Positions 9,417 to 61,779 of a stretch of DNA of 64,000 nucleotides are shown piece after piece. The DNA comes from an uncultured Gammaproteobacteria bacterium (GTDB lineage Bacteria; Pseudomonadota; Gammaproteobacteria; Eutrophobiales; Eutrophobiaceae). Location: assembly GCA_938084745.1 (NCBI GenBank), contig CALKEZ010000001.1, forward strand, positions 1,127 through 65,126, read 5' to 3'. Every line of letters begins with the position of its first letter. Position 1 is the stretch's first letter. The translations under genes and the position numbers were made by a program. Under the pieces are notes generated by a model. That model did no database searches. It was not told where the DNA came from and saw nothing but the letters and a program-made list of their open reading frames with translations.

Positions 9417-9770
9417 ATGACTACAGAAACAACTATTAATCTTACTGAAAGCGCCAAAAAACACATCGAGAGTGTTCTCGCGAAGGATACCGACGGTATT
9501 GGTTTACGCGTTGGCGTGAAAACCACGGGCTGCTCCGGTTACCAATATGTCATTGAGACTGCGAAAGCCATCAACGAAGAAGACCGGATTATTGAATCGA
9601 ATGACATCAAGATCGTCATTGATGAGCAAAGCCTGCGTTATCTTGCCGGAACAGAACTTGATTTTGTTCGTGAAGGTTTGAATGCCGGCTTTAAATTCAA
9701 CAATCCTAATGTTGAGGAATCCTGTGGTTGTGGTGAAAGCTTCAGCCTCAAAGAAGAATCGGGAACATAA
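9417..9770 (+). CDS. sufA: A-type Fe-S carrier (SufA/IscA, HesB family)
   Basis: GCSGY and CGCGESF motifs; lies in a suf operon. Confidence 0.88.
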
Positions 9771-9774
9771 ACTT

Positions 9775-11223
9775 ATGGCAACGAATACTGAAAATGTAGA
9801 AGAACTGGTTCGCAAAGACTATGAGCATGGTTTTTTCACTGATATCGAAAGTGATACCGTGGAACCTGGCCTTAGCGAAGAGACCATTGCGTTCATTTCG
9901 GCAAAGAAGGAAGAACCGGAATGGTTGCTTGAATGGCGTTTGAAAGCCTATCGTCATTGGCTAACCATGAAAGACCCGACCTGGGCGCATCTGGATATTG
10001 AACATATTGATTATCAGGCCATCTCTTATTATTCAGCGCCAAAATCGAAAGATGACGGTCCCAAGAGTCTTGATGAAGTTGATCCAAAATTATTAGAAAC
10101 ATACGAAAAACTTGGCATTCCGCTGCAGGAACAAATGATGTTGGCGGGGGTTGCCGTCGATGCGGTGTTTGACAGCGTCTCTGTTGCGACCACCTTTAAA
10201 AGCAAGCTGGCCGATGCCGGTGTTATCTTTTGCTCATTCTCAGAAGCAGTAAAAGAATATCCGGAACTCGTTAAAAAATATCTGGGCTCTGTTGTCCCTG
10301 CGGCTGATAACTTTTTTGCCGCATTAAACTCGGCCGTGTTTACGGATGGTTCATTTGTTTATATCCCCAAGGGCGTGCGTTGCCCGATGGAACTGTCAAC
10401 CTATTTCAGAATTAACGCGTCCAACACCGGACAGTTTGAGCGTACCTTGATCGTCGCTGATGAAGCGAGTCACGTCAGCTATCTTGAAGGTTGTACCGCG
10501 CCGATGCGCGATGAAAACCAGTTGCATGCAGCCGTCGTTGAGTTGGTTGCCTTGGAAGATGCGCAAATAAAATACTCTACCGTACAAAACTGGTACCCCG
10601 GTGATGAGAACGGAGTAGGTGGAATATATAACTTTGTGACTAAACGCGGTGATTGTCGCGGCAATAACTCAAAGATCTCCTGGACTCAGGTAGAAACCGG
10701 ATCAGCGATTACCTGGAAATATCCAAGTTGTATTTTAAAAGGAGATAACTCTGTCGGTGAATTTTATTCCGTCGCCGTCACGAACAATCATCAACAAGCC
10801 GACACCGGTACAAAGATGATCCATATCGGCAAGAATACCCGTAGCACGATTATTTCCAAGGGTATCTCTGCACGACATGCGCAGCAATCCTATCGCGGGC
10901 TGGTTAAGATCAGCAAGAGTGCAGAAAACGCCAGAAACTATACACAATGTGATTCCTTATTAATGGGCGATCAATGCGGTGCCCATACCTTCCCTTATAT
11001 TGAAGCGAAAAACTCAACAGCAACCGTTGAGCATGAAGCAACAACATCGAAGATTGGTGATGACCAATTATTCTATTGTATGCAACGCGGTATTAAGGAA
11101 GAAGATGCGGTCAACATGATCGTTAATGGCTTTTGTAAGGAAGTATTCAAGGAATTGCCGATGGAATTCGCAGTAGAAGCACAAAAACTTCTGGGTATAA
11201 CACTTGAAGGTGCGGTTGGGTAA
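9775..11223 (+). CDS. sufB: Fe-S assembly protein SufB
   Basis: [25 protein letters not shown] and EHEATTSKI motifs; likely start is ATG 9775 (MATNTENV), not 9682. Confidence 0.98.
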
Positions 11224-43876: not shown

Positions 43877-44683
43877 ATGCAAGCAGATACACCCGATATA
43901 TTGAAAGAGATACTTAACTACAAAGCCGAGTATGTCGCACAGGTTAAAAAATCATCCTCATTAAAAGAACAAAAAGCGAAAGCGGCTGATTGTCCTCCCG
44001 TGCGTGGTTTTACTTATAATCTGTCGAAGACCATCAAAGCGGGACAGCCCGGAGTTATAGCAGAGATCAAAAAGGCTTCTCCTAGTCGTGGTATCATACG
44101 GGAAGATTTTCAGGCCGACGCGATTGCCAAAAGTTATGCTGATGCCGGCGCCTGTTGCTTATCGGTACTGACCGATATCAAATATTTTCAGGGTTCCGAT
44201 GATTACCTTAAACAGGCGCACGCGGCCTGTAGTTTGCCAATACTGCGCAAGGATTTCATGATCGATCCTTATCAGGTCTATGAAGCCAGAGTGATTGGTG
44301 CTGACTGTATCCTGATTATTGTGTCGGCTTTATCTGACTTACAAATGCAGGAATTGGTTGGGGTTGCCAACGAGCTTGGACTGGATGTACTGGTCGAGGT
44401 ACATAACCGTGAAGAGCTCGAACGCGGCCTGATGCTTCGCACACCGCTGATAGGAATTAACAACCGGAACCTGCACACGTTTGAAACTGATCTGGATACT
44501 ACTCTTGGTCTGTTAACAGATGTTTTTCAAGACCGCACTGTCGTCACAGAAAGCGGCATTCACACCCAGGAGGAGGTAAATTTGATGCGTAAAAATAACG
44601 TTAATGCCTTTCTGGTAGGTGAAGCCTTTATGAAGGCAACAGATCCTGGCGCTGAGCTTAAAAAACTATTTTTTTCTAATTAA
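43877..44683 (+). CDS. trpC: Indole-3-glycerol phosphate synthase
   Basis: [26 protein letters not shown] and ESGI. Confidence 0.97.
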
Positions 44684-44737
44684 TATATCGGCTTCAAAGG
44701 AAGTCGTTAAATCATATAAATAAAGGAGTATCTTGTA

Positions 44738-45625
44738 ATGATGACACGTAAATTAATACACAGTTTTATAGGCCTGATTTTATCATCATCGTTTATTAAC
44801 CTCGCCCATGCCGAAGGAGAGGGACTCGAACTGGCCTGGGAATTAACCGGTCTGGCCAATCCTGAATCCGTTGTTTACGATCCAAGGCTAAACCTGCTTT
44901 ACGTTTCCAACGTGAATGGCGGACCAAATGATAAGGATGGCAACGGTTATATCTCGCTCGTCTCCATGGACGGCAGGATAATCAATGAAAAATGGGTTAC
45001 TAATCTAAATGGACCGAAAGGACTCGCCCTATCCGGCAACATGCTTTACACCGCAGACATAGATGAGATTGTGACAATTGATGTTGACCACGGACGCATA
45101 CTAAACAAATACAAAATTGATGGTGCTAAATTTCTAAATGATGTTACCGCAACTGATACCGGCGATATTTATGTCTCTGATATGCTGACCAATAAAATTC
45201 ATTTGTTATCCGGTACTACAGTAACAACCTGGCTGGAATCGGATGAACTTGAATTTCCAAACGGCTTACTCTTTACCGAAGACGATATCATTCTCGGGAC
45301 CTGGGGCAAGATGACCGATGGCTTTGCAACAGAAGTTCCCGGACATCTAAAGCGTATTTCATTAAAGACGAAACAGATTTCGGACATTGGCGATGGTTCT
45401 CCTGTCGGCAACATGGATGGTGTTGAAGGCAATGATGACATCGGTTTTTATGTCACCGACTGGATGAACGGCACGCTTTTCCACATCAGTGCAAAAGGTG
45501 AAGTAACGACCCTGTTGGATTTAGATCAGGGCAGCGCAGATATTGAATTGGTACTGAAGAAACATCTGCTCATCATTCCAATGATGAATGACAACAAAAT
45601 GTTTGCCTATAAAATTCAACATTAA
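44738..45625 (+). CDS. Exported SMP-30/gluconolactonase-like beta-propeller protein
   Basis: Signal peptide AHA|E; PES, LND, PNG and MDG propeller metal-site motifs; AGGAG RBS. Confidence 0.8.
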   Translation: MMTRKLIHSFIGLILSSSFINLAHAEGEGLELAWELTGLANPESVVYDPRLNLLYVSNVNGGPNDKDGNGYISLVSMDGRIINEKWVTNLNGPKGLALSGNMLYTADIDEIVTIDVDHGRILNKYKIDGAKFLNDVTATDTGDIYVSDMLTNKIHLLSGTTVTTWLESDELEFPNGLLFTEDDIILGTWGKMTDGFATEVPGHLKRISLKTKQISDIGDGSPVGNMDGVEGNDDIGFYVTDWMNGTLFHISAKGEVTTLLDLDQGSADIELVLKKHLLIIPMMNDNKMFAYKIQH

Positions 45626-45640
45626 TCAATAGACCATAGC

Positions 45641-45681
45641 AAAAATCGCCGGCATGCCAGTCACATGCTGGCGATTTTTTT
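45641..45681. terminator. Bidirectional intrinsic terminator
   Basis: AAAAATCGCCGGCATG-CCAGTCA-CATGCTGGCGATTTTTTT inverted repeat with A/T tails on both sides. Confidence 0.85.
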
Positions 45682-45903
45682 GCATCCGACTTAACTCCGC
45701 CGAAATTATTTTTTTGGGATTGATAATAAATGTTAGTATTTTTTAAAATTTGTACTAATATCCGCAAATAAAATTAACTGTGTATAAACCCAATAAAAAA
45801 AGATAATCGGAACACTCGCTCACATACTGTGCCAACCTTACGCCCGGGGCTTTCTTTAGCCTCACCCCTGTGAAAAAAACAATCTACTTGTATAGCAAGT
45901 GCC

Positions 45904-46623
45904 ATGGACGTTGAACTACCGATAACTATCCTGCGTCAGCCGGATGACACGACTTGTGGTCCGACCTGTTTGCACGCGGTCTATAATTACTATGGTGAGG
46001 ATATCTCTCTGGATGAGGTTATTACTGACACGGAGACGTTGCAGGCTGGTGGTACGCTGGCAGTCTTTCTTGCCTGTGCCGCCCTGCGTCGCGGCTATAA
46101 AGCAACGATCTATACTTACAACCTTCAGGTTTTTGATCCGACCTGGTTTGCCTCGCCGGATATTGATATAGCAGAGCGCCTGATAAAACAGGCCGAAGCT
46201 AAAGAAGATAAAAAATTGCGCTTTGCAACCGAGGGCTATCTGGAGTTTCTAAGACTGGGCGGTAAGCTCCGGTATGTTGATCTGACTACCGGACTGTTAC
46301 GTAACATCATTCGACGTCGTCTGCCGATCCTCACCGGACTCAGCTCGACGTATCTTTATAAGACAAAACGAGATATTGATGACGAGCCTTCAGGTGATGA
46401 CATCCGAGGTTACCCGGATGGGCACTTTGTTATTTTGAGTGGTTACCACCGACATGATCGAACCGTATTAATTAATGATCCGTATGAGCCGAACCCGGTA
46501 TCGGGTTCACTCACCTATGCCATCAATATTGATCGGGTGATTTGTGCCATCTTGCTAGGCGTACTCACTTATGATGCCAACCTGTTAGTTATACAACCGG
46601 CCAATTCAAGGAAAAAGTCATGA
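45904..46623 (+). CDS. Peptidase C39-like (papain-fold) protein
   Basis: Q-x5-C (QPDDTTCGPTCL), GHFV (His) and NDP (Asp) give a catalytic triad. Confidence 0.85.
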   Translation: MDVELPITILRQPDDTTCGPTCLHAVYNYYGEDISLDEVITDTETLQAGGTLAVFLACAALRRGYKATIYTYNLQVFDPTWFASPDIDIAERLIKQAEAKEDKKLRFATEGYLEFLRLGGKLRYVDLTTGLLRNIIRRRLPILTGLSSTYLYKTKRDIDDEPSGDDIRGYPDGHFVILSGYHRHDRTVLINDPYEPNPVSGSLTYAINIDRVICAILLGVLTYDANLLVIQPANSRKKS

Positions 46624-48092
46624 ACATACTCCTGGTCGTAAACAACCCTAACAATTGGCCACTGCAAATTCCCGGGGTCAGTGTCGTCGCGGCACGCACC
46701 TACCTGACTGATCCGGCCTACTCTGAAGGTAAAAAAACGCGCGTCTTCAATCTGTGTCGTTCCTATAGTTATCAACGCACCGGTTATTATGTGTCACTGC
46801 TGGCCGCGGCACGCGGTCACAAACCGATGCCTGACATTAATACGATTCAGGATCTTAAATCACCCCATGTGATTCAGGCTATATCAGAAGACATGGAAGA
46901 ATTGATTCAAAAAAAGCTCAGTCATTTGCAATCCAAACGCTTTACCTTGAGTATTTATTTTGGTCGAAATATAGCGAAACATTATGATAGTTTGAGTTTG
47001 CGCTTATTTAATCTGTTTCAGGCGCCCTTACTACAAGCGCGGTTTGTCAAAAGAAAGACCTGGCAACTGGAATCCATTCGCACGATAACCGTGACGGACA
47101 TACCCGATAACCATCGCGACATTGTGATAGAGGCAGCTTCAAATTATTTTTCCGGCCGTAAACGTCGCGTCAAAAAAGGCACCACGACGCGATTTGATCT
47201 GGCGATATTGCATGACCCGGATGAAAAAGAACCACCGTCCAATGAAAAGGCCTTAAAAAAGTTTCAAAAAGCAGCAGAGTCTGTCGGACTGGACTGTGAA
47301 CTTATTACTAAAAATGATGTGAATCGTATTGCTGAATTTGATGGCTTATTTATACGTGAAACCACGCTGGTTGATCATCACACTTTTCGCTTTGCACAGC
47401 GTGCCGTAAATGAAGGCTTGATCGTTATGGATGATCCCAACTCGATACTTAAATGTACCAACAAGGTTTATCTGGCCGAATTAATGGCGCGGCATAATAT
47501 ACCCATACCCAAGACCATGATCGTGCATCGGTATAATATCGATCAGATAGAGAAAACCCTGGGCTTGCCCTGCATCTTGAAAAAACCAGACAGCGCATTT
47601 TCGATGGGCGTCTCCAAGGCGGAAAATCGGGAGGAATTAATCTCGACCGTAAAAACCCTGCTTGAAGATTCGGACCTTGTCATAGCGCAACAATTCCTGC
47701 CTACAAATTTTGACTGGCGTATCGGTATTTGTGATCGTAGGCCGTTATATGCCTGTCGTTACCATATGGCAGATGAGCATTGGCAAATAATCAAACGTGA
47801 TGCACTGGGTAATTCTACCGGTGAGGGTACTGCCGATACGATGGCGATTGGTGAAGCACCGGATGATGTAGTGAACATCGCGCTTAAGGCAGCAAACCTG
47901 ATAGGTGATAGTCTTTACGGCGTAGATTTAAAACAGGTTGGTCAAAAATTCTACCTGATTGAAATTAACGATAATCCAAACATTGATAGTGGTTGTGAAG
48001 ATCTGGTTCTGAAGGATGCGCTCTACCGGGAAATCATGGGGGTGTTTATCAAACGCATAGAAGCTCGCAAACTCGGCTTATATGGACGCTAA
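46620..48092 (+). CDS. RimK-family ATP-grasp ligase with N-terminal RLAN domain
   Basis: N-terminal NLCRSY.Y...GYYVSLLA.ARGH (RLAN); ATP-grasp motifs CTNK, KKPDSAFS.GV, QQFLP..DWRI, GVDLK and EINDNP. Confidence 0.9.
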   Translation: MNILLVVNNPNNWPLQIPGVSVVAARTYLTDPAYSEGKKTRVFNLCRSYSYQRTGYYVSLLAAARGHKPMPDINTIQDLKSPHVIQAISEDMEELIQKKLSHLQSKRFTLSIYFGRNIAKHYDSLSLRLFNLFQAPLLQARFVKRKTWQLESIRTITVTDIPDNHRDIVIEAASNYFSGRKRRVKKGTTTRFDLAILHDPDEKEPPSNEKALKKFQKAAESVGLDCELITKNDVNRIAEFDGLFIRETTLVDHHTFRFAQRAVNEGLIVMDDPNSILKCTNKVYLAELMARHNIPIPKTMIVHRYNIDQIEKTLGLPCILKKPDSAFSMGVSKAENREELISTVKTLLEDSDLVIAQQFLPTNFDWRIGICDRRPLYACRYHMADEHWQIIKRDALGNSTGEGTADTMAIGEAPDDVVNIALKAANLIGDSLYGVDLKQVGQKFYLIEINDNPNIDSGCEDLVLKDALYREIMGVFIKRIEARKLGLYGR

Positions 48093-49338
48093 AATGCCAA
48101 AACCACTCTCAATTTTTTCTGCCTATGGCATAGAAATCGAATACATGATTGTTGATCGAAAGCATATGAATGTAATGCCGATCACCGATAAAGTGCTGCA
48201 CCATGTTGCTGGTGAATATCGCAATGAAGTAGATCAGGGTGAAATCGCCTGGTCAAATGAATTGGTTTTGCATGTTATTGAAACAAAAACCAATGGTCCG
48301 GCTAAATCTTTGTTACAGGTACCGGAACATTTTTTAAAAAATATAAAACAGATACAAACGATACTCGATGAGATGGGCGCGCGCTTGATGCCAACGGCCA
48401 TGCATCCGTGGATGAATCCGTTTAAAGAAACGCGATTATGGCCACATGATTCCAAAGAGATCTACGACACCTATAACGGCATTTTCAACTGCCAGGGACA
48501 CGGTTGGTCAAACTTGCAAAGTATGCACATCAACTTGCCGTTTGCGAACGATAAAGAGTTTGCCTTACTGCATAGTGCGATACGTACCCTATTGCCCATA
48601 TTGCCTGCTTTGTCGGCGAGCTCGCCGATAGTGGAAGGTTCGTCTACCGGAATAATGGATACCCGGCTCGAGGCTTACCGTCAAAATTCAAAAATAATTC
48701 CGTCTATTACCGGACTGGTTGTACCTGAAGCAGTGATCAGTGAAAAAGAATATCAACGCTTAATTCTGAAACCGATGTACAAGGCGATTGCACCATTTGA
48801 TAAAGACAAGATATTACAGGATGAATGGTTAAATTCACGTGGTGCGATAGCTCGCTTTGATCGAAATGCGATAGAGATACGTGTATTAGACACACAGGAA
48901 ACACCTGCCGTTGATCTGGCCATAGCCAGTTTTATCATTCAGGTATTAAAAAAACTCTCGGATAAAAGCTGGTCCAATGTCATAGAACAAAATACACATG
49001 AGACCGCAGCCTTAGCACAAATACTGGATAAGGTAATAGTCGATGCTGATCAGGCCGTGATAGATGATCGTGACTACCTGCAATTGTTCTCGTTCCCGGA
49101 CAAGAAATGCAGTACTCAGGAATTATGGCAATACTGCCGCGAGTCAGTCGATCTGAATACAGGCGAATTTGCGGCATCAACCACATCAATAATTGATTTC
49201 ATTTTGAAAGAAGGCCCCTTGGCCAGACGTATATTGAATGCCACTGGCAATAGTGTTAAAAAATCCAGGCTACACGAAACCTATCGTGTGTTGTGTGACG
49301 CACTGCTTGAAGGAGAACCTTTTGTTGGCATCGATTAA
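48082..49338 (+). CDS. Glutamate-cysteine ligase family 2 (GCS2)-type carboxylate-amine ligase
   Basis: GIEIEY, NEL..HVIE, HPW, SMHIN, SSP and EIRVLD metal/ATP-binding motifs. Confidence 0.88.
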   Translation: MDAKMPKPLSIFSAYGIEIEYMIVDRKHMNVMPITDKVLHHVAGEYRNEVDQGEIAWSNELVLHVIETKTNGPAKSLLQVPEHFLKNIKQIQTILDEMGARLMPTAMHPWMNPFKETRLWPHDSKEIYDTYNGIFNCQGHGWSNLQSMHINLPFANDKEFALLHSAIRTLLPILPALSASSPIVEGSSTGIMDTRLEAYRQNSKIIPSITGLVVPEAVISEKEYQRLILKPMYKAIAPFDKDKILQDEWLNSRGAIARFDRNAIEIRVLDTQETPAVDLAIASFIIQVLKKLSDKSWSNVIEQNTHETAALAQILDKVIVDADQAVIDDRDYLQLFSFPDKKCSTQELWQYCRESVDLNTGEFAASTTSIIDFILKEGPLARRILNATGNSVKKSRLHETYRVLCDALLEGEPFVGID

Positions 49339-50030
49339 TGAATCTGATTGTTAGCTGTGAACATGGCGGGAACAAAATTCCAAAACGCTATCTGCCACTA
49401 TTTAAAAATAACCTATCACTATTAAACAGTCATCGTGGCTGGGATCCAGGGGCATTGATACTGGCAAAAAAAATAGCGCTCGATTTATCAGCACCGTTAT
49501 TTTATTCAACCACATCCCGCTTATTAATTGATCTGAATCGATCATTACACCATCCCGGACTATTTTCAGAATTCAGTAAACGTGCCGATGACACTATCCG
49601 GCAGAAAATAATTAACAGTATTTATATTCCCTATCGAACCGGGATAGTGGAACATATAAAAAAAATTAAATCAGCAACAAACCCGATATTGCATCTGTCG
49701 ATACATTCCTTTACCAATAAACTGGAAGGTATCGAACGTACTGCTGATATTGGACTGCTCTATGATCCGTCAAAGCTGTCCGAAAAGAATTTTTGCAGAA
49801 AATTAAAAACATCGCTCGAACAGGCTTTTCCGGACCTCATTATCAGATGCAACTATCCCTATCGGGGTAATGCTGACGGCTTTACAACATACCTGCGACG
49901 CCGTTTTAATGAACGTGACTATGCCGGCATCGAGATTGAGATCAATCAAAAACATGTTGTTAGTGATAATGTGGTCTGGTCTGAAATTAAAAAGAAACTT
50001 GGCAATTTAATATTAAATAACGTCAAATAA
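49338..50030 (+). CDS. N-formylglutamate amidohydrolase-family protein
   Basis: CEHGGN, HRGWDPGA, SRLLIDLNR, SIHSF, NYPY and EIEI; TAATG overlap with the upstream gene. Confidence 0.88.
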   Translation: MNLIVSCEHGGNKIPKRYLPLFKNNLSLLNSHRGWDPGALILAKKIALDLSAPLFYSTTSRLLIDLNRSLHHPGLFSEFSKRADDTIRQKIINSIYIPYRTGIVEHIKKIKSATNPILHLSIHSFTNKLEGIERTADIGLLYDPSKLSEKNFCRKLKTSLEQAFPDLIIRCNYPYRGNADGFTTYLRRRFNERDYAGIEIEINQKHVVSDNVVWSEIKKKLGNLILNNVK

Positions 50031-50068
50031 GCGATAAGCAAATTTTAATTTACAGGTAAGAGCAGCTA

Positions 50069-51133
50069 ATGTTGAATCACGACTTCATAGATTTACTTAA
50101 AGCCATCATACGGCAACCCAGTGTCGTCGGCGCAGAACATTCATTCTTTAGAGTCTTGCAGCGTGAGCTTGAAGAACGCGGCGCAAAAGTAACCTGGTAT
50201 GAGGGCTTATTGGTTGCGCAAGGTAGTGACCCGTTTAGTGCTATGTTTTCGGCACATATCGATCGTCATGGCCTTATCTGCACTGGACCGAATGAATTTC
50301 AGTTTGCTGCGTTTATCTCTGCGAACAGAACAGACCTGTTAAACAATTCGGTTTCAGAAGAATTAATGAGCAAGGTAACAGAACGTTTTCAATCCGAACC
50401 TGTTTTCGCTTACGAACCATGGTCAGGTGCCTACCGCGGTAATGGCATTATTAAAAAATCTTATGTCTGCGAGAACAGGAACAACCTGATATTCGAACTC
50501 GAGGGTCTGGGTGATGTTGTTGCAGGCACACCGATCGCCTTTAAAGATAAGCTCAAGATCAATAATAATCGACTCGAGGGTCAGCTCGACAATGTGTTAA
50601 GTGCCGCTGTGTTAGTACATTTATTCAGTCTTGGTTTTAAAGGCACTGCATTTTTTACAGCACAAGAGGAGGCAGGAAAAAGTTGGCGTTATTTACTGGA
50701 GTGGTTCCGTCGTTTCGGTGGCTCAACTAACCGACTGTTCGTTGTCGACACCAGTCCGTTTCCAGACATTGCCACAGCCAATGAACAACTGCTCGTGTTA
50801 AGAGAAAAGGATGCCAATGCCCCCTTTAATAAAGAGGCAACGGCACACATTGAAAAACTCTGTCGAAATAATGATCTCAGTTATTTATATAAAGACCGCT
50901 ATGTAGAAGCCGACAATGCCCGCTTGCAAAGCCAGGGCGAAAAGCCACGTTCATTGGGCAGTACCGAAATGGGCAGAATAATTGCAGCATCGAATGGCCT
51001 GGTAGACGGCACCACAATTCAGATCCCGACGACGGGTTATCACACCATGGAAGAATCTGCCGCTATCGAATCAGTCGAAGCATTTATAGACATTCTAACG
51101 TTATTAGCTAATGACGTTGCCTATTCAACGTAA
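50069..51133 (+). CDS. M42/M20-clan dinuclear metallopeptidase
   Basis: AHID, QLDN, QEE, VD and YH metal ligands of clan MH. Confidence 0.8.
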   Translation: MLNHDFIDLLKAIIRQPSVVGAEHSFFRVLQRELEERGAKVTWYEGLLVAQGSDPFSAMFSAHIDRHGLICTGPNEFQFAAFISANRTDLLNNSVSEELMSKVTERFQSEPVFAYEPWSGAYRGNGIIKKSYVCENRNNLIFELEGLGDVVAGTPIAFKDKLKINNNRLEGQLDNVLSAAVLVHLFSLGFKGTAFFTAQEEAGKSWRYLLEWFRRFGGSTNRLFVVDTSPFPDIATANEQLLVLREKDANAPFNKEATAHIEKLCRNNDLSYLYKDRYVEADNARLQSQGEKPRSLGSTEMGRIIAASNGLVDGTTIQIPTTGYHTMEESAAIESVEAFIDILTLLANDVAYST

Positions 51134-51195
51134 AGCGCTATCTGAATTTTATTCATTTAAATCCTGACTTCCCAAATAACAGAGTGATAGACAGA

Positions 51196-53079
51196 TCAAT
51201 TTATTTGCTGCCCGTAAGATTTAAAGTCGCGCGGATCGATCAGGTATTTCTTGAGTCGCGACATCACCGTTGTTGGTTTCATATCCAGTAACTCGGCAGC
51301 ACCACCTTCACCAAAAACTTTTCCCTGGCATTGATCAAGTGCAACCAGTAAATTGCGTCGGTCTCTGTCTTTAATTTCCGAGTCTGTAAGGACTGTTTTA
51401 TCATTTAAAATTTGCCGAGGAACGTTTTCATTATTAATAGAAACGAGTTCATTAAAACGTATGCTATTACCCTGGGCAAGAATGACCTGTCGCTCTATTA
51501 CATTTTCCAGTTCGCGAATATTACCGGGCCAATGATAGCTTTTAAGTTTTTCCAGTTCACTTAAGGAAATTTTAAGACCTGTTTTTTTTGCCCGTATAAC
51601 AGCGCGCTGAATAAAGTGCTGTGTCAATAATGGAATATCCTCCGGTCGATTGCGTAGCGGAACCGACTCAATCGGGAACACGTTCAATCTAAAATATAAA
51701 TCTTCGCGAAAATGTCCCTGCTCTACCTGTTTTTTTAATTTACGATTCGTTGCGGCGATGATCCGTACATCAACATTTCGGGTTTTTGATTCACCCACTC
51801 GTTCAAACTGCTGTTCCTGTAACACGCGCAGTAATTTTCCCTGAAGATGAAGCGGAATCTCACCAACTTCATCCAGAAACAAGGTGCCGCCATCGGCTAA
51901 TTCAAATCGACCCGGACGATCTGATGTTGCACCGGTAAACGCTCCCTTTGCATGACCAAAGAATTCGCTTTCAAAAAGATCTTCCGGTATGGCTGCACAG
52001 TTCACCCGAATTAAAGATCGTTGAGATCGTTCACTCATCTCATGTATAGCACGCGCTATTAATTCCTTACCTGTACCAGACTCACCATTTATCAATACAG
52101 TGGCATCGGTAGGTGCAACCAGATTGATTTGCTGCACAATATTCTGGATAGCAGGACTCTTGCCTATTATTTGATGGTGATTAAATTCAGAATTGATTTC
52201 TTCTTGCAGATAAGCATTTTCCATTTCCAGTCTGTTTTTCAGGTTTTGTACTTCGATCAACGCTTCCAGTAATCGTTTCTTGTCGGTCTTTTTTTGTGAT
52301 ACGTCATGAAAAATAACAACTGCACCTACAATAAAACCGTTGTCACGAATCGGCGTGCTGGTGTATTCAACATCAACGGGCTTGCCTGATTTCGACCAGA
52401 AAACATCTTCCTCAACGGTATGTACTGTCCCATCCCGAAAAGCCTCAAAGATCGGACATTGCTCAATCCCGAAATGAGAGCCATTCACACGACTATGATG
52501 GATCATGCTATGCATATTTCGCCCGGCCAGCTCTGCGGCACTAAAACCCAGGATGCGCTCAGCGGCGGGATTGACAAAAGTAGTGATGCCTTTTTCATCA
52601 ACGCCGTAAATTCCTTCACCAACCGCATCAAGTATCAGTTGGTTTTCTCTTTCGAATTCCTGGAAGACCCGACTGACCCGGTTCCAATGACCAATACCGG
52701 AAAGATAATGTCGCTGCGCATCGGACAACTCGCGTAACTGATCCAGTTCATCTGCCAATTGCAGGCTCAAATGAAGCTGTAACTGATCACTGCTTTCAAA
52801 ACTGCGACCTGTTACTTCCATGCGTAGTTCGCCTTTATTACAGGTAAGTAATAAATGGTCTGACCAGGCCCGGCCCTGATCGATGACTTCTTCGGTAAAG
52901 ACCACCATCGCCGGGAAACTGGGCGAGAATAAATGACTGGCACGTTGTGATTCAATTTCTTCAACACTCATTCCCAGTAAACGACAGATTTCCTGATTAG
53001 CACCGATAATCTTGTCTGATATTGGTTCAACGACTAACTGGGGAGTAGCTGAATAATAAAAAAAACTGTCATTGATCAT
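51196..53079 (-). CDS. Sigma-54 enhancer-binding protein (PAS-PAS-AAA+-HTH)
   Basis: [30 protein letters not shown] and C-terminal HTH; N-terminal PAS domains; start is ATG 53079 or TTG 53094. Confidence 0.93.
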
Positions 53080-53172
53080 ATTTATTGGACTCAAAATAAA
53101 GGACGTAATACCAACGTTTTAGTAACGCTGTTTTGATATAGTTAGTAACTCTATCTCAACATCTATGCCAAC

Positions 53173-53225
53173 TACGAAATCTCGTTTTATTCACTATGAA
53201 ATATCGTGTATTACGAACTCTCGTA
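53173..53225. promoter_or_regulatory. Three TACGA-N4-TCGTA-type palindromes (putative UAS of the divergent activator)
   Basis: TACGAAATCTCGTT (53173-53186), TATGAAATATCGTG (53195-53208) and TACGAACTCTCGTA (53212-53225). Confidence 0.65.
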
Positions 53226-53292
53226 GTGATTTTTTATCTTACATAATCCTTTATATCCCTTTATATTCAACTAGTTAAAGAATTTCTCAGGC

Positions 53293-53309
53293 TTGGCCCC
53301 CCACTTGCA
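53293..53309 (+). promoter_or_regulatory. Sigma-54 (-24/-12) promoter of the cyanate operon
   Basis: TTGGCCCCCCACTTGCA is GG-N10-GC with TTGCA; IHF-like ATTCAACTAGTTA at 53265-53277; adjacent activator gene. Confidence 0.8.
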
Positions 53310-53435
53310 ATAGCCCTTACAGTGTGTGTGTTAACTGCGAGTCAAAACTTGCAAGTGATGCACCTTAATCACTTTGTTTTGTACAACGTGCACCGTAAAG
53401 ACGCATTACGATATCAACTTTAGAGGTAAGTGAAT

Positions 53436-54905
53436 ATGACCAATAAAAGTCTAGGCGACCCCTTTGACGCAAATAGCAAGTTGACACATTCGACCTCATG
53501 TCGATGTGAGACTTGTAAGGCCGAGCAATCCAGTCCCAATGGATTGAGCGATAGTGAACGACAGCAATTAATGGAACGGCAAGCCGAAGCTTCCGAAATT
53601 CATGCTTCCGGAAGTGAAAGAGGCGATACACCCGAATTTGAGAGCAGCGATGATATGCTTGACCGCGCCGTAGAGAGCGCCATCGTTCGTGGCATGTTTG
53701 GTCATAACGACGCCAGTCGTCGTAACTTTATCAAACTCGTTGGCGGTGGCACACTGGCAACCGTGCTCGGCAGTATTCTGCCTATGGATAAGGTAAAGGC
53801 CGCAGTTAAAGATTCATTCGGTCCTCTTGAAAAAACCAAATTAAAAGTAGGTTTTGTCCCGATCACTTGCGCCACACCAATCATCATGGCTCAACCTATG
53901 GGCTTTTATGCCAAGTATGGCCTTGATGTCGATGTCATAAAAACAGCCGGTTGGGCTGTCGCTCGAGACAAATCACTGAATGGCGAATACGACGCATCAC
54001 ATATGCTGACGCCGATGCCATTAGCAATGAGTATGGGTGCCGGTTCTACATCGACGCCTTATATCATGCCTGCAGTTGAAAATATTAACGGTCAGGCGAT
54101 CGTTCTGCACAATAAACATAAAGATAAACGTGATCCTAAACAGTGGAAAGGCTTTAAGTTTGGCGTGCCGTTTGATTACTCCATGCATAACTTTTTATTA
54201 CGTTACTATGTTGCTGAACATGGTATCGATCCCGATCAGGATATTCAGATAAGAGTAGTACCACCACCAGAGATGGTAGCTAATCTACGCGCCGGCAACC
54301 TGGATGGTTACCTGTCTCCAGACCCATTCAACCAACGTGCCGTCTATGAAAAAATTGGTTTTCTACACATTCTGACGAAAGATATCTGGGAAGGGCATCC
54401 TTGTTGCGCATTCGCTTGTAGTGAGAAATTTGCGAAAGAAATGCCAAATACCTATGCCGCACTGTTTAAATCGATCGTTGATGCAACACACTTCTCGGCT
54501 AAAGCAGAAAATCGTGCCGAAATTGCCAAAGCCATCTCACCTAAGAATTACCTCAATCAACCGGAGGTAGTGGTCAGACAGGTTTTGACCGGGCGTTATG
54601 TCGACGGTCTTGAAGAGAAAGTATTCGATGTGCCTGATCGAATCGACTTTGATCCGTTCCCATGGCATTCAATGGCCGTCTGGATTCTGACACAGATGAA
54701 ACGCTGGGGTTATGTTGAAGGTGATATTGACTACACCGGCATTGCCGAGCGCGTCTATGTTGCTGCAGAAACCGGCAAGGTCATGAAAGAACTGGGCTAT
54801 ACACCGCCGGATAAAACTTACCAGAACTACACCATCATGGGTAAAACATTTGATTACACCAAGCCGGAAGAATACATCAATAGTTTTGCGATTAAACGAG
54901 GCTAG
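53436..54905 (+). CDS. cynA: CmpA/NrtA-family ABC substrate-binding protein (cyanate-binding, CynA-like)
   Basis: GFVPITCATP, YSMHNFLLRYY, PPPEMVANL, PDPFNQRA and GHPCC; internal SRRNF Tat-like motif; upstream of cyanase. Confidence 0.85.
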   Translation: MTNKSLGDPFDANSKLTHSTSCRCETCKAEQSSPNGLSDSERQQLMERQAEASEIHASGSERGDTPEFESSDDMLDRAVESAIVRGMFGHNDASRRNFIKLVGGGTLATVLGSILPMDKVKAAVKDSFGPLEKTKLKVGFVPITCATPIIMAQPMGFYAKYGLDVDVIKTAGWAVARDKSLNGEYDASHMLTPMPLAMSMGAGSTSTPYIMPAVENINGQAIVLHNKHKDKRDPKQWKGFKFGVPFDYSMHNFLLRYYVAEHGIDPDQDIQIRVVPPPEMVANLRAGNLDGYLSPDPFNQRAVYEKIGFLHILTKDIWEGHPCCAFACSEKFAKEMPNTYAALFKSIVDATHFSAKAENRAEIAKAISPKNYLNQPEVVVRQVLTGRYVDGLEEKVFDVPDRIDFDPFPWHSMAVWILTQMKRWGYVEGDIDYTGIAERVYVAAETGKVMKELGYTPPDKTYQNYTIMGKTFDYTKPEEYINSFAIKRG

Positions 54906-54910
54906 CGATA

Positions 54911-55735
54911 ATGTCACTTAACTTTCGTGCCGGTGTCTTATCGCTGGTAATACTGTTCCTCTTGCTTGGAATTTGGGAAGCGCTTAATCAGCCGCCAGAT
55001 GCGTCAAAAGCGCTTTCCGAATTCGAACTTTTGATGGGTGGCTCGGATCAAGAAGCACGTGTTCCACCACCCTCGTCAGTGCTAAAACATGCTTATGATG
55101 AATTGAGTAATCCTTTTTATGATGCCGGACCGAACGATAAGGGTATTGGTATTCAAATCGCCTATTCGATTTATCGCGTTTTGTTAGGTTATTTCGCTGC
55201 TGCACTGATAGCGATCCCGTTAGGGTTTGTAATCGGGATGTCACCGTTGATGTATCGGGCGTTGAATCCTTTTATACAGGTGCTAAGGCCGATATCGCCG
55301 CTGGCATGGATGCCACTGGCACTGTTTATCATTAAGGACTCGGAACAATCAGCCATCTTTGTTATTTTCATTTGCTCTATCTGGCCGATGCTGATCAATA
55401 CCGCATTTGGTGTGGCGAGTGTCCGCACAGACTGGGTTCGCGTTGCGCAGACACATGAGTTAAGTCAATTAAAAACTGCGTTTCAAGTAATTCTGCCCGC
55501 TGCTGCGCCAACAATTTTAACCGGTATGCGCATCTCTATCGGTATTGCCTGGTTAGTTATCGTTGCAGCTGAAATGCTGGTGGGCGGAACCGGCATCGGT
55601 TACTACGTCTGGAACGAGTGGAATAACCTTGATTTAAACAGCGTTATTTTTTCCATCTTGATGATCGGTGTTGTTGGCATGATATTGGATTTTGCTCTGG
55701 GCACAGTCGCAAAAATTGTGCAGTACGAGGAGTAA
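54911..55735 (+). CDS. cynB: Cyanate/nitrate ABC transporter permease
   Basis: PNDKGIG, LRPISPLAW and AWLVIVAAEM NrtB-family motifs. Confidence 0.85.
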   Translation: MSLNFRAGVLSLVILFLLLGIWEALNQPPDASKALSEFELLMGGSDQEARVPPPSSVLKHAYDELSNPFYDAGPNDKGIGIQIAYSIYRVLLGYFAAALIAIPLGFVIGMSPLMYRALNPFIQVLRPISPLAWMPLALFIIKDSEQSAIFVIFICSIWPMLINTAFGVASVRTDWVRVAQTHELSQLKTAFQVILPAAAPTILTGMRISIGIAWLVIVAAEMLVGGTGIGYYVWNEWNNLDLNSVIFSILMIGVVGMILDFALGTVAKIVQYEE

Positions 55736-55739
55736 AAAA

Positions 55740-56648
55740 ATGAGTAAGTATTTTCTAAGTATGGAAGGATTGACAAAAATCTTTCCCAGTAAAGAAGAAG
55801 ACATGGTGGTATTTGAAAATATCAATATCGGTCTGAACAAGGGTGAATTCGTCTGCATCATTGGTCATTCGGGTTGCGGCAAATCCACCATCATGAATGT
55901 TCTGGCGGGACTCGATAGTCCTACTAGTGGCAGTGTCATTATGGATGGCCATGAAGTTTCCGGTCCGAGTCTGGATCGAGGCGTGGTATTTCAAAACTAT
56001 AGCCTGTTGCCGTGGCTAACGGCAATGCAGAATGTCTCATTTGGTGTTAAGGCGCGTTGTCCTGACTGGACCAGGGAACAGGTGATCGCACACAGTCGAA
56101 AATACCTGGAAATGGTCGGACTGGAAGAATCATTGAATAAAAAACCGGCACAATTATCGGGTGGCATGCGACAGCGCGTGAGCATTGCACGTGCCTTCGC
56201 TACCAACCCGAAGTTATTGTTACTGGATGAACCGTTTGGCGCATTGGACGCGTTGACCCGCGGAATTATTCAGGACGAGCTGATAAAAATCTGGGGTGAA
56301 ACACAACAAACTGTTTTCATGATCACGCACGACGTCGATGAAGCTATTTTACTGGCTGATCGCGTGCTGCTAATGACTAACGGCCCAAAGGCACGCGTTG
56401 CAGAATCGGTGCTGATCAATTTACCCAGACCACGTAAACGCGATACGGTTATTGATGATCCGAATTACTACAAGATTCGTAATCATCTGGTTCATTTTCT
56501 GGTGAAACGTTCTGAAGAACTATCCGGATCTGTAAGTGATGAAGACGGTGGCACCATCGTCATCGACCCGACTAAAGACACCAGCACCAAAGTTGAAAAT
56601 ACTGGTGAACAAGACACCAATCCACAATATGAGCGCGTCGCTCTTTAA
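55740..56648 (+). CDS. cynD: Cyanate/nitrate ABC transporter ATP-binding protein
   Basis: GHSGCGKST, LSGGMRQR and LDEPFGALD; ATG 55740 after GAGGAG. Confidence 0.85.
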   Translation: MSKYFLSMEGLTKIFPSKEEDMVVFENINIGLNKGEFVCIIGHSGCGKSTIMNVLAGLDSPTSGSVIMDGHEVSGPSLDRGVVFQNYSLLPWLTAMQNVSFGVKARCPDWTREQVIAHSRKYLEMVGLEESLNKKPAQLSGGMRQRVSIARAFATNPKLLLLDEPFGALDALTRGIIQDELIKIWGETQQTVFMITHDVDEAILLADRVLLMTNGPKARVAESVLINLPRPRKRDTVIDDPNYYKIRNHLVHFLVKRSEELSGSVSDEDGGTIVIDPTKDTSTKVENTGEQDTNPQYERVAL

Positions 56649-56672
56649 ATATATATCTATCAGGAGAATAAA

Positions 56673-57113
56673 ATGGATAAAGTAACCATGACAGAAAAAA
56701 TCATGAATGCAAAAACTAGTAAAGGGGCTAGCTGGGAAACGGCCGGTAAAACACTCGGTATGTCGCCAGTGTGGCTAACTTCGGCTTGTCTGGGAATGAA
56801 CAGCGCACCTGAAGAAAAAGCAAAAGCGATTGCTGATTACTTTGGTTTGGGGCCGGATGTTGTCGATGCGCTCGTTGCCTTCCCCACCAAGATATGGGAT
56901 CAAGCCGTTCCAACCGATCCGCTGATTTATCGTTTGTACGAGGTAGTCGGTGTATATGGTGAAACACTAAAAGAAGTTATTCAGGAAAAATTTGGTGACG
57001 GCATTATGAGTGCAATCGATTTTTCCATGGAAGTGGACAAGATAGAAGATCCTAAAGGTGATCGTGTTTTGCTTACCTTAAATGGCAAGTTTCTTCCTTA
57101 TAAATCCTGGTAA
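56673..57113 (+). CDS. cynS: Cyanase (cyanate hydratase)
   Basis: PTDPLIYRLYE, FGDGIMSAIDF and GKFLPY signature. Confidence 0.97.
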   Translation: MDKVTMTEKIMNAKTSKGASWETAGKTLGMSPVWLTSACLGMNSAPEEKAKAIADYFGLGPDVVDALVAFPTKIWDQAVPTDPLIYRLYEVVGVYGETLKEVIQEKFGDGIMSAIDFSMEVDKIEDPKGDRVLLTLNGKFLPYKSW

Positions 57114-57133
57114 TTTAGATTCAGCCTTTAGCA

Positions 57134-57607
57134 ATGACTGACAAGCAACGCCCACCGCTGCCACCGTTTGATTATGATAGTGCAACTATCAAGGTACGTA
57201 AGGCAGAAGATGCATGGAACACAAGGAATCCGGATGCCATTGCACTCGCTTACAGTGTTGATTCCGTCTGGCGCAATCGTGCAGAGTTCCTGCAGGGCCG
57301 CGATCAAATAGTCGCGTTCTTAAACCGAAAATGGATGCGTGAACTCGACTATCGTTTAATCAAGGAAATATGGGCACATGATAAAAATCGGATTGCTGTT
57401 CGTTTTGCCTACGAATGGCATGATGATTTAAACAACTGGTATCGATCCTATGGTAATGAAAACTGGGAGTTCGATGAAAGCGGTCTGATGAAAAAACGTA
57501 TTGCCAGTATTAACGATGTGACCATTGATGAATCGGAGCGGAAGTTTCATTGGCCCAGTGGACCGCGTCCAGAAGATTATCCGAGCCTGTCTGAACTGGG
57601 TCTTTAA
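57134..57607 (+). CDS. DUF1348 / SnoaL-like NTF2-fold protein
   Basis: [35 protein letters not shown] and RIASIND. Confidence 0.9.
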
Positions 57608-57796
57608 TACAATCCGGATTTTTCAGCTGGTTTATTGATTGACCGTTTCCTGCCAGCGCTGCAATGCCCTTTCGTAATAAACAAAAATACAATTTTCACA
57701 GCCACGGTTGCAACACTCTGCTGCATCTGGCCTGACCGGTTTTGTCGGATGTTGTTTTGACGTCTCTTGCTTATTCATTTTGAAAACTGAAGTTGA

Positions 57797-58216
57797 TTAA
57801 CCTGTTGCGAATAACTGTGCACGGTCTTTAAACGATTTAAACTCAAGTGCATTGGCACTAGCATCAGAAATAAAGAACGTCGCTTGTTCGCCTGGCTCGC
57901 CTTTAAAGCGGATGGTTGGCTTAATTAAATAATTGATCGGTTGTTTATCCAGTCGCTCGACAAGTTGATGCCAAACATCCCATTCCAGTACCAGACCGAA
58001 ATGTCTGACCGGTACTGCCTCACCATCAACCGGGTTCGTTTCAGCTTTATCTAAGGCTTCCGGTTTGACATGTGCGGAAAGTTGATGGCCGAAGAAATTA
58101 AAATCAATCCAGTGTTCAGCCTCACGACCAACCGTACAACCGATTATGTTCGAATAAAACTCACGCGTTGTTTTTATATCCCTGACCGGTATGGCAAGAT
58201 GAAACGGGGAAAGCAA
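57797..58216 (-). CDS. VOC/glyoxalase family protein
   Basis: FHLAIPV, WIDFNFFGHQL, VPVRHFG and NALEFK. Confidence 0.88.
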   Translation of the reverse strand: MLSPFHLAIPVRDIKTTREFYSNIIGCTVGREAEHWIDFNFFGHQLSAHVKPEALDKAETNPVDGEAVPVRHFGLVLEWDVWHQLVERLDKQPINYLIKPTIRFKGEPGEQATFFISDASANALEFKSFKDRAQLFATG

Positions 58217-58233
58217 AGTCGCAACGCCAGCCG

Positions 58234-59325
58234 TTATACATTAAACCTGAAGAGAATAACGTCACCGTCCTTAACGATGTATTCCTTGCCTTCTGAACGC
58301 CATTTTCCAGCATCCTTCGCGCCTTGCTCACCCTTATACTGAATGTAGTCAGCAAAAGCCGTGACTTCTGCCCGGATAAAGCCTCGTTCAAAATCAGTAT
58401 GGATAACACCGGCTGCTTTTGGAGCAGTCGAACCGACCGGAATAGTCCAGGCACGCACTTCTTTTTCACCAGCAGTAAAATAATTCTGTAACCCAAGTAA
58501 CTCGTAACCCGCACGAATAATACGATTTAAGCCTGGCTCTTCCATGCCCAACGCATCCAGAAACTCCTGTTTTTCATCCTCGTCCAGTTGCGATACTTCA
58601 GCTTCTATCGACGCACAGACAGGAATCAATTGGGCATTTTCATTTTCGATCAAGCCCTGGATTTTTTCTAACCAGGGATTGGAATCAAGACCGTCTTCTT
58701 CAACATTGGCAATATATAAAGTCGGCTTCTGGGTCAGCAAGTGCAGATTATAAATCAAGGCGAGATCATCTTCTGACAATGACATGGAACGTACAGGCAA
58801 GCCCTGATCCAGATGCGCCATTACGGCCTCAAGGCGTTCCTGTTCCAGCTTGGCTGATTTATCACCACTGCGGGTTAACTTCGCTGCTTTTTGTAGCGCC
58901 TTGGTGACGGTTTCTTGATCAGCAAGACAAAGTTCAGTATTGATAACTTCTATATCCGAAATTGGATCAACCTTACCCGCAACATGCACAATATTATCAT
59001 CGTCGAAACAACGTACCACCTGAGCAACGGCATGTGTCTCTCGAATATTGGCCAGAAATTTATTGCCCAGACCTTCACCTTTCGATGCACCTTCAACGAG
59101 GCCGGCAATATCAACAAACTCCATATGCGCCGGCACTATACGCTGCGGTTTGACGATCTCGGCCAGTTGTTGCATACGCTTATCAGGGACCGCGACAACG
59201 CCAACATGGGGGTCGATGGTACAGAAAGGATAATTCTCTGCGTCTATCGCTGAGTTGGTTAACGCATTAAAAAGCGTCGATTTACCGACATTTGGTAAAC
59301 CAACAATGCCACATTTAAATCCCAT
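58234..59325 (-). CDS. ychF: Redox-regulated ATPase YchF
   Basis: [22 protein letters not shown] and GLGNKFL; C-terminal TGS domain. Confidence 0.98.
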
Positions 59326-61702: not shown

Positions 61703-61779
61703 TGGCTGGGGTGCCAGGACTCGAACCTGGGAATGCATGGATCAAAACCATGTGCCTTAACCAGCTTGGCCACACCCCA
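61703..61779 (-). tRNA. tRNA-Gln (UUG)
   Basis: Reverse complement TGGGGTGTGGCCAAGCTGGTTAAGGCACATGGTTTTGATCCATGCATTCCCAGGTTCGAGTCCTGGCACCCCAGCCA folds into a cloverleaf with anticodon TTG and encoded CCA; typical ispE-tRNA-Gln-prs position. Confidence 0.97.

Follow-up and report, generated by a model that had tools for sequence, protein, structure and literature searches.

Neighbourhoods of amidoligase genes built around RLAN-RimK proteins were reportedly predicted by comparative genomics by Iyer, Abhiman, Burroughs and Aravind in 2009 (Mol Biosyst 5:1636); they are reported to combine an RLAN domain fused to a RimK-like ATP-grasp ligase with a papain-like peptidase and a second amidoligase. 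The same combination was found in a 64,000-nt stretch of DNA from an uncultured member of the Gammaproteobacteria (GCA_938084745.1, contig CALKEZ010000001.1), here called the window, whose numbering is used throughout. Five plus-strand open reading frames (ORFs) in this window encode a C39-like papain-fold protein, an RLAN-RimK ligase, a GCS2-family ligase, an FGase-fold amidohydrolase and an M42-like metallopeptidase (Table 1). The M42-like gene is a lineage-specific neighbour and the only peculiarity of the locus relative to the neighbourhoods reported in 2009. The real unit is a three-to-four-gene cassette consisting of the C39-like, RLAN-RimK, GCS2 and usually FGase genes. The present analysis established how often each variant occurs, the fusions of RimK with GCS2, and an ATP-grasp-like fold in a model of RLAN.

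RimK-type enzymes attach L-glutamate to a carboxylate by way of an acyl-phosphate intermediate, and GCS2 enzymes form an amide between a carboxylate of glutamate and an amine. FGase takes an acyl group off the glutamate amine, and in papain-fold enzymes a cysteine mediates the hydrolysis or transfer of acyl groups. Glutathione synthesis (GshA with GshB, or the fused GshF) resembles the cassette in that a glutamate-cysteine-ligase-type enzyme and an ATP-grasp ligase, as two proteins or as one fusion, produce a short peptide independently of the ribosome. However, the host genome (2.2 Mb in 57 contigs, 87% complete) has its own GshA (PF08886 type, 615.6 bits) and GshB (250.9 bits) elsewhere, and the cassette proteins missed the GshA and GshB cut-offs of NCBIfam. 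Unlike in GshF, the ATP-grasp part is N-terminal in the RLAN-GCS2 fusions described below, and the cassette operon includes peptidases. The trio that makes the osmolyte N-acetylglutaminylglutamine amide (NAGGN) comprises Ngg, a GNAT-ATP-grasp protein, together with AsnO and an M42 peptidase, and offers a conceptual likeness as a dipeptide-making ATP-grasp system with an M42-family hydrolase and a small capped peptide. However, TIGR03103 scored 36.2 vs. 569 on the fusion protein P0242 described below and was not among the matches of the window ligase at E ≤ 0.01, and the window proteins gave no NCBIfam match to AsnO or to a TIGR03106-type M42 enzyme. LysX and ArgX, which act with LysW, provide the best structural matches of our RLAN model and sequence relatives of the ATP-grasp half, but no LysW-like gene was found in or near the cassette and the LysX cut-off was missed.

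Polyglutamylation of ribosomal protein S6 by RimK with RimA/RimB likewise pairs a RimK-type ligase with a protease that trims its product (PMC11957791). That protease is retropepsin-like rather than papain-fold, the system has neither RLAN nor GCS2, and the canonical RimK of our host (302 aa, 232.5 bits) is encoded elsewhere in the genome. In the thiohistidine clusters described in PMC13674229, TgiB, a RimK-Pfam enzyme, joins glutamate to thiohistidine to give a dipeptide, and a related cluster has one YbdK-like enzyme in that position. The cassette differs from the TgiA/TgiB clusters in having no sulfoxide synthase and in holding both ligase types together, with peptidases. A search for a histidine-utilisation context for the FGase-like protein found no urocanase in the 87% complete host genome. 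Given the separate GshA, GshB and RimK and the lack of a urocanase hit, the enzymes of the cassette are distinct from the housekeeping set. A literature search found no characterised product for the RLAN-RimK cassette, in agreement with the original prediction, which knew of none for this gene combination.

Layout and conservation of the cassette

The junctions of the five ORFs were read directly from the sequence. The C39-like and RLAN-RimK genes overlap in an ATGA, the RLAN-RimK and GCS2 genes share the 11-nt ATGGACGCTAA, and the GCS2 and FGase genes meet in a TAATG, whereas the M42-like gene follows the FGase-like gene after 38 nt and has its own Shine-Dalgarno-like AGGTAAGAG. An intrinsic terminator splits the upstream trpEGDC-NHL block from the cassette. 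ORFs, overlaps, gap and terminator all lie where the original prediction had placed them, and its statement that no obvious signal peptide is present agrees with the hydropathy of the five proteins, none of which has a hydrophobic N-terminus (maximum Kyte-Doolittle 19-residue mean in the first 30 residues ≤0.73). None of the five reached a curated or equivalog cut-off of NCBIfam. The scan that gave the candidate promoter returned 15 promoter-like sites, fewer than the mean of 21 in shuffled sequence, and the candidate is weakly backed.

Table 1. Features of the window. Residue numbers are those of the encoded protein.
Feature	Position	Strand	Evidence or remark
Variable stretch (hot spot)	44683-57797
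Intrinsic terminator of the upstream NHL-repeat gene	45641-45681	+	Hairpin of -25.8 kcal/mol, then T run; terminator scan
Candidate sigma-70-like promoter, TTGATA-18-TAAAAT	45720-45749	+	10/12 positions match; in 222-nt intergenic region
C39-like papain-fold cysteine peptidase or transpeptidase, 239 aa, core member	45904-46623	+	PF13529, 3.2e-11, 44.4 bits; PF03412, 1.3e-7
ATGA overlap, C39-like/RLAN-RimK	46620-46623	+	Read directly
RLAN-RimK ligase, 490 aa	46620-48092	+
RLAN domain of the ligase, residues 1-180	46620-47159	+	PF14401, 1.8e-49, 167.7 bits, residues 25-171
RimK-type ATP-grasp module, complete, residues 199-490, core member	47214-48092	+	PF08443, 2.5e-11, 44 bits vs. cut-off 21, residues 281-456
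11-nt overlap, RLAN-RimK/GCS2	48082-48092	+	Read directly
GCS2-family carboxylate-amine ligase, 418 aa, core member	48082-49338	+	PF04107, 4.3e-27, 95.7 bits vs. cut-off 21
TAATG junction, GCS2/FGase-like	49336-49340	+	Read directly
FGase-fold amidohydrolase, 230 aa, frequent but optional member	49338-50030	+	PF05013, 3.5e-24, 86.6 bits
M42-like metallopeptidase, 354 aa, lineage-specific neighbour, membership doubtful	50069-51133	+	PF05343, 1.3e-5, 24.8 bits vs. cut-off 23.2, partial, residues 150-291
Glyoxalase-like gene and ychF	57797-59325
tRNA gene	61706-61779	-	Rfam

Related loci were surveyed with one genome per species, which gave 598 pattern matches, 590 of them confirmed, and the best 80 loci (56–74% identity) were used. 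By record title these loci belong to gamma- and betaproteobacterial lineages, Planctomycetota, Verrucomicrobiota, Desulfobulbaceae, Acidobacteriota, Bacteroidota and Tectomicrobia, so that relatives of at least 56% identity occur in at least seven phylum-level groups. A C39-like gene lay immediately upstream of RLAN-RimK in 68 of the 78 loci with room for it, GCS2 lay immediately downstream in 65 of 74, and an FGase gene directly followed GCS2 in 40 of 60. The order C39, RLAN-RimK, GCS2 was kept in 57 of the 68 loci with room on both sides, either with a following FGase gene (38 loci) or without it (19 loci); RLAN-RimK stood alone in eight, and three showed other patterns. Stop and start codons overlapped at 46/70 C39>RLAN, 61/69 RLAN>GCS2 and 24/39 GCS2>FGase junctions, with start sites picked heuristically, and the cassette is a translationally coupled operon. 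Genes outside these four varied by locus (50 neighbours scanned, plus further loci). The recurrence of gene order and overlaps across phyla is more than chance. The pairwise-distance matrices of the three core proteins (62 rows) correlated with r of 0.72–0.81, a value reached in 0 of 999 permutations, which speaks for joint inheritance only and not for physical contact.

Fusion proteins were sought among proteins of 859–2450 residues, of which 37 matched the ligase at E ≤ 1e-20. Thirty-six of these were single chains of 898–998 aa that combined GCS2 with RLAN and, in most cases, RimK; their sources are named in part as Planctomycetes and Sandaracinaceae. In another lineage, therefore, both ligases belong to a single machine. 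The remaining protein, P0242 (885 aa), was a GNAT-DUF3335-RLAN-RimK fusion, and by its domain matches a papain-fold domain can be covalently joined to RLAN-RimK.

P0242 represents a sister system that was the commoner type in an even sample of 301 genomes of the class. PF14401 was present in 79 of them, with one copy each, and the 78 loci other than the window's own were examined with profiles built from our alignments. The neighbour of RLAN-RimK was a GNAT-DUF3335 (C39-like) fusion in 50 loci, DUF3335 only, at a contig end, in one, and GNAT only in five; C39 occurred with GCS2 and FGase in nine loci, with GCS2 in two and by itself in two, and the other nine loci had none of these genes. A papain-fold partner of either type adjoined the ligase in 64/78 loci and GNAT in 55/78. 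The sister system shares the ligase family (42–45% identity) and the papain-fold pairing with the window, but has GNAT where the window has GCS2, and lacks FGase. The minimal unit is thus a papain-fold enzyme, RLAN-RimK and a swappable GCS2 or GNAT module. At one sister-type locus (L094 of genome G025, 9466–10002) a DUF1451 zinc-ribbon gene directly follows RLAN-RimK, and its product could be a carrier or substrate. An M20 gene beside the same locus was excluded from the system, being ArgE by NCBIfam (547.7 vs. 460 bits).

A tree of 101 RLAN-RimK sequences was built with a quick method, with SH-aLRT support and a midpoint root used for drawing only. The unfused GCS2-type sequences formed one clade (SH-aLRT 100) of 33 rows (21 GCS2, 10 solo and two C39-only), nested among GNAT-type sequences, and the eight fused proteins placed in the tree formed a separate clade with support of 100. 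Solo forms, for example from Gallionella records, fell inside the GCS2-type clade and may reflect secondary loss or relocation of partner genes. On short branches of the tree, sequences from different phyla are intermingled, a pattern suggestive of lateral transfer. The family is very large, as all 8000 scored candidates had E ≤ 0.001, the best 120 being 60–93% identical. There was no sign that the cassette is plasmid-borne, to judge from the 11 of 72,556 plasmid records that held an RLAN-RimK relative (32–49% identity, mostly Azospirillum chromids). One relative in a Pseudomonas aeruginosa plasmid record (L114, 4863–6452; 42% identity), annotated 'RimK family alpha-L-glutamate ligase', stands solo between SDR and aminotransferase genes, near pagP and glutamate/aspartate transporter genes.

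The M42-like gene behaved differently from the first four. Its product matched PF05343 only marginally, the whole-genome scan with this model at E ≤ 0.001 missed it, no NCBIfam model matched, and its best profile match in the PDB had an E-value of 0.14. H63, D65, D174, E200, E201, D227 and H325 are invariant in 12/12 sequences and may represent a two-metal ligand set plus the catalytic Glu; alignment to solved M42 chains was confined to the segments around H63/D65 and H325, with non-significant E-values. The family has 2598 matching proteins at E ≤ 1e-5, and the best 120 besides the window's own are 79–93% identical and bear gamma-, zeta- and deltaproteobacterial names, the best relatives coming from Mariprofundus, Cycloclasticus, Psychrosphaera, Colwellia, Psychromonas, Thiomicrorhabdus, Nitrosomonas and Malonomonas. 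The gene is rare (5/301 genomes of the class and 5/401 of the phylum, own genome included), and combines strong sequence constraint with a patchy spread and varied contexts.

Elsewhere, the M42-like gene adjoined RLAN in none of the 80 surveyed loci and none of the 78 of the class sample. It stands next to the cassette only in the window's genome (G000) and in G010, whose cassette proteins are 78–93% identical to the window's. Five genomes hold both the M42-like gene and a GCS2-type cassette, and in the other three the two are unlinked: the M42-like gene of G009 lies on a contig other than the cassette's, with no FGase hit upstream, and those of G058 and G268 lie on contigs other than their four-gene cassettes. 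In G022, a genome without RLAN, it lies between glucose/sorbosone dehydrogenase and SpoU methylase genes. In G147 (L113, 8271–13181) it stands beside a glutaminase gene, with a divergent canonical rimK and an AstE/AspA-like gene, which makes another glutamate-enzyme-rich setting. At the level of genomes there is a hint of association, as nine of the 12 holders seen also have an RLAN system (five of GCS2 type and four of GNAT type, unlinked) against a background of 26% (Fisher test in the class sample, p = 5e-4 with the own genome and p = 0.007 without it). We regard this as a lead and not a result, because the holders span about seven genera and our own genus was chosen by the feature. The M42-like gene is probably not a core part of the cassette and at most a local, optional helper; that its enzyme acts on the product of the cassette we consider possible but less likely than not.

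These results bear on several claims of the original prediction. Its five-gene unit did not hold, as the M42-like gene adjoins no RLAN locus in the two surveys and is unlinked in three of the five genomes with both. Of its three hydrolases, the C39-like enzyme is a constant member and FGase a frequent but optional one, while the M42-like enzyme is only local. Its view that the ligases and peptidases are co-inherited rather than stand-alone was supported by the kept order of the C39-like, RLAN-RimK and GCS2 genes, the overlapping junctions, the correlated distances, the 36 fusions and the separate housekeeping enzymes of the host. By the same token, it is very improbable that five unrelated enzymes with ordinary activities (S6 glutamylation, GshA, HutG and an aminopeptidase) simply lie side by side. 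The M42-like gene does occur in other contexts, and the FGase-like gene stands without ligases in G022, as this explanation would have it. However, for the first four genes it is contradicted by an order kept across phyla and by fusion proteins, and it is at odds with GshA, GshB and RimK genes elsewhere in the genome and with five proteins that reach no equivalog cut-off.

Domains and fold of the encoded enzymes

The catalytic motifs, which the original prediction had judged intact, were compared across homologues, and key residues are invariant in the C39-like (29/29), FGase-like (20/20) and M42-like (12/12) proteins. In the C39-like protein these are Q12, C18, H174 and D192, which we take to be the catalytic Gln, Cys, His and Asp of the family. 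In an alignment with the PCAT1 peptidase domain, C18 falls on the cysteine motif, though with a non-significant E-value. The C-terminal stretch is hydrophobic and conserved (Kyte-Doolittle 2.20 at residue 212), and may consist of buried strands rather than a membrane anchor. The hallmarks of C39 bacteriocin processing, namely a fused or adjacent ABC exporter and a double-glycine precursor, were not found in the five-gene block. The C39-like gene of locus L080 (7264–7971) and the GCS2 gene of L041 (9462–10706) each contain one in-frame stop within the tblastn range, which could point to a pseudogene, an error in the assembly or spill-over of the alignment.

The ATP-grasp half of the ligase is recognisable as a RimK relative but falls outside the named subfamilies. 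TIGR00768 (rimK_fam) covers residues 209–454 but scores 59.6 of the 143.4 bits needed, and the equivalog models for S6--glutamate ligase (24.8 vs. 331 bits) and LysX (59.1 vs. 275.6 bits) were also missed. By profile, its matches in the PDB were Pseudomonas RimK (7qys, 8.3e-11), E. coli RimK (4iwx, 4.6e-9) and LysX (1uc8, 2.3e-8). On family precedent only, RLAN-RimK would ligate L-glutamate to a carboxylate.

The RLAN domain lies N-terminal to the ATP-grasp module, and is described in Pfam as an uncharacterised alpha+beta domain. A structure model of residues 1–200, built from 30 sequences, had a mean pLDDT of 86.9, with residues 183–198 modelled as a disordered basic linker. In a VIA-align search the model matched ArgX (3vpb) with Z of 10.9 over 173 aligned residues at a root-mean-square deviation of 4.7, LysX/ArgX (5k2m) with Z of 10.6 and E. 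coli RimK (4iwx) with Z of 10.4. The top 35 rows of the structural search are ATP-grasp enzymes by title, and Foldseek concurs. The match is graded as moderate because chance best scores with this tool typically reach Z of 7–8, yet the hits appear consistent in kind and span the whole domain. At the sequence level, the RLAN profile found nothing among PDB sequences at E ≤ 10, and hhalign of RLAN against its own ATP-grasp half recovered shared junction residues only, so the ATP-grasp likeness derives from a single predicted model. The invariant residues of RLAN (e.g., the motif G55-Y-Y-x-S-L-L-A-x-A-R65) do not include E-x-N, which we take to be the metal motif of the active ATP-grasp half. RLAN is probably a truncated, non-catalytic ATP-grasp-like fold, and RLAN-RimK could be a pseudo-dimer in one chain, with RLAN as the shortened, inactive copy of the ligase fold. 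No paper linking RLAN with ATP-grasp and RimK was found in the literature.

The GCS2 gene is the only PF04107 gene of the genome. Its product scored 66.3 of the 176.4 bits of the YbdK subfamily and fell far under the cut-offs of all GshA models, and among PDB sequences only the plant glutamate-cysteine ligase matched (1.3e-3). The FGase-like gene is likewise the only PF05013 gene of the genome; its product missed the hutG equivalog TIGR02017 (15.7 vs. 278.75 bits) and carries E8, H9, H119, H123, E199 and E201 among its invariant residues. In G022 (L123, 5275–7035), an FGase gene 64% identical to the window's stands without either ligase and follows a transglutaminase-like papain-fold gene, a second pairing of a papain-fold with an FGase gene.

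A glutamyl peptide and alternative products

Starting from the observed gene unit, its coupling, the fusions, the independence from housekeeping enzymes and the fold model of RLAN, we infer that the cassette may build and trim a small, ribosome-independent, glutamate-containing peptide or amide in the cytoplasm; for this product and the chemical steps towards it we consider the chances evenly balanced. By family precedent, the GCS2 enzyme would make one amide bond, of gamma-glutamyl type, and the RimK-type module would add L-glutamate to the terminal carboxylate, with the two ligases working in sequence on one molecule as in fused glutathione synthetases. The FGase-fold enzyme could then undo the acyl-glutamate bond and the C39-like enzyme would hydrolyse or transfer the remaining part, leaving one enzyme able to reverse each kind of bond made by the two ATP-driven ligations. 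RLAN, as a degenerate ATP-grasp-like module, would most likely serve assembly or substrate holding rather than catalysis. Since GNAT stands in for GCS2 in the sister system, the role of this module may be to cap an amine, the cap being a gamma-glutamyl group in the cassette and an acyl group in the sister; the RimK module would then extend a carboxylate with Glu.

A small peptide is favoured over a protein tag because no substrate gene travels with the cassette, because the ligases fuse as in bifunctional peptide synthetases, and because RimK-Pfam enzymes with small substrates are documented. MyfA and MyfB, ATP-grasp glutamate ligases presented in PMC8141765, act on the small coenzyme methylofuran. 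Consistent with the original prediction, neither a precursor-peptide ORF nor an exporter was found: the largest family of flanking ORFs of 15–110 aa occurred in 5/80 loci, all close kin, so that no conserved small ORF lies beside the cassette, and the five-gene block holds no exporter.

Several points weigh against a small peptide. Cutting peptides is the usual activity of C39 peptidases, RimK is best known for acting on a protein (ribosomal protein S6), and the best matches of the RLAN model, ArgX and LysX, work on the carrier protein LysW. The GNAT of P0242 scores near RimI, which we take to be a protein N-acetyltransferase (85.2 bits vs. a cut-off of 86.4). The ligase-ligase fusion fits a protein tag equally well, RLAN-RimK alone persists in 8/68 loci, and no product of the cassette was seen. 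In G022 the FGase-like and M42-like genes persist without ligases, so that the supposed erasers are not strictly dependent on the writers.

In a rival reading, RLAN-RimK would glutamylate the C-terminus of a protein or carrier peptide encoded elsewhere, as a write/erase mark. GCS2, of the same superfamily as PafA, would then link the terminal glutamate to an amine, the C39-like enzyme would expose or remove the tail, and FGase would trim it. In addition to S6, LysW and RimI, such tagging is in line with an ATP-grasp half closest to RimK and LysX among solved proteins, an intact C39 catalytic set, and the zinc-ribbon DUF1451 gene right after RLAN-RimK at the one sister locus. However, across 80 loci no conserved partner gene or small ORF adjoins the cassette, a canonical RimK is already present in the host, and small-molecule substrates are on record for RimK-Pfam enzymes; we therefore hold tagging to be possible but rather unlikely.

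The papain-fold enzyme is the most constant companion of RLAN-RimK in the class sample and is fused to it in P0242, which would also suit a role in activated-donor transpeptidation. The ligases would build a peptide with a terminal glutamate as leaving group, and the C39-like acyl-enzyme would transfer the rest, giving oligomers or decorated acceptors, as the papain-fold phytochelatin synthase does with glutathione. The acyltransferase BtrH and phytochelatin synthase are placed in a papain-like assemblage with C39 in the review PMC10318531. The case is nevertheless purely analogical, no acceptor has been identified, and hydrolysis is the default of C39 enzymes, which makes transpeptidation in this form quite improbable. 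A broader version seems unlikely, if somewhat less so: the ligases would build an ATP-activated glutamyl peptide that the C39-like enzyme transfers onto proteins or other acceptors or polymerises, with RLAN as a substrate-holding pseudo-enzyme and the M42-like protein as a trans-acting eraser. If true, such a transfer machine would be a bacterial counterpart of pupylation or phytochelatin synthesis.

Genomic setting and significance

Within its genus the cassette occurs in 3/23 genomes. The stretch from trpC(-NHL) to the glyoxalase-like gene and ychF is variable: G010 has the same five genes there, G004, G003 and G001 have none of the five, and G022 has carbonic anhydrase, TauE, RNase H-like, transglutaminase-like and FGase genes. 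The window carries an extra 6.6 kb with sigma-54 activator and ABC transporter genes between the M42-like and glyoxalase-like genes. The cassette is accessory DNA in a hot spot with differing cargo per species. Upstream it is flanked by trpE-G-D-C and the NHL-repeat gene, and downstream by a convergent PAS/sigma-54 activator followed by NrtA/NrtB-like transporter genes. A link to sigma-54 was dropped since the adjoining activator is convergent and missing from the G010 locus. Near the cassette, Rfam matched no RNA family, either in the window or at four related loci; the tRNA gene was the sole Rfam match in the window.

The host, taken as a methylotroph, has three genes for the formaldehyde-activating enzyme (Fae), of which one is flanked on both sides by ATP-grasp genes (contig C27, 16955–20973) in what is probably a tetrahydromethanopterin (H4MPT)/methylofuran cluster with MyfA/MyfB-like glutamate ligases. 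The cassette might accordingly mature or branch the polyglutamate chain carried by methylofuran, or that of some other glutamylated cofactor, and the enzymes that branch the methylofuran chain are described as unidentified in PMC8141765. Its presence in just three genomes of the genus speaks against such a role, as do the Nitrosomonas, Thiobacillus, Desulfobulbaceae, Acidobacteriota and Bacteroidota records that carry it, presumably from non-methylotrophs, and we regard it as highly unlikely.

Near-identical DNA was found mostly in marine, seawater and estuary metagenomes from 11 studies, although several of the rows may derive from the source sample itself. In two metatranscriptome runs from a single study there were a few contigs of 151–256 nt, lying in RLAN-RimK, across the RLAN/GCS2 junction and in GCS2. 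These were not counted as expression, because DNA can be present in such libraries, and the stretches left uncovered carry no weight either.

The locus itself will not surprise a specialist, but the biochemical question it raises is worthwhile and testable. RLAN-RimK ligases are common, being present in 79/301 sampled genomes of the class, yet the literature search gave no named product. The minimal unit is set apart from glutathione synthesis, S6 modification and histidine degradation, and the set of genes to clone is four, not five. A long-standing gap in bacterial biochemistry would be closed if the product proved to be a new protein mark or an abundant new peptide (an osmolyte, thiol, chelator or nitrogen store).

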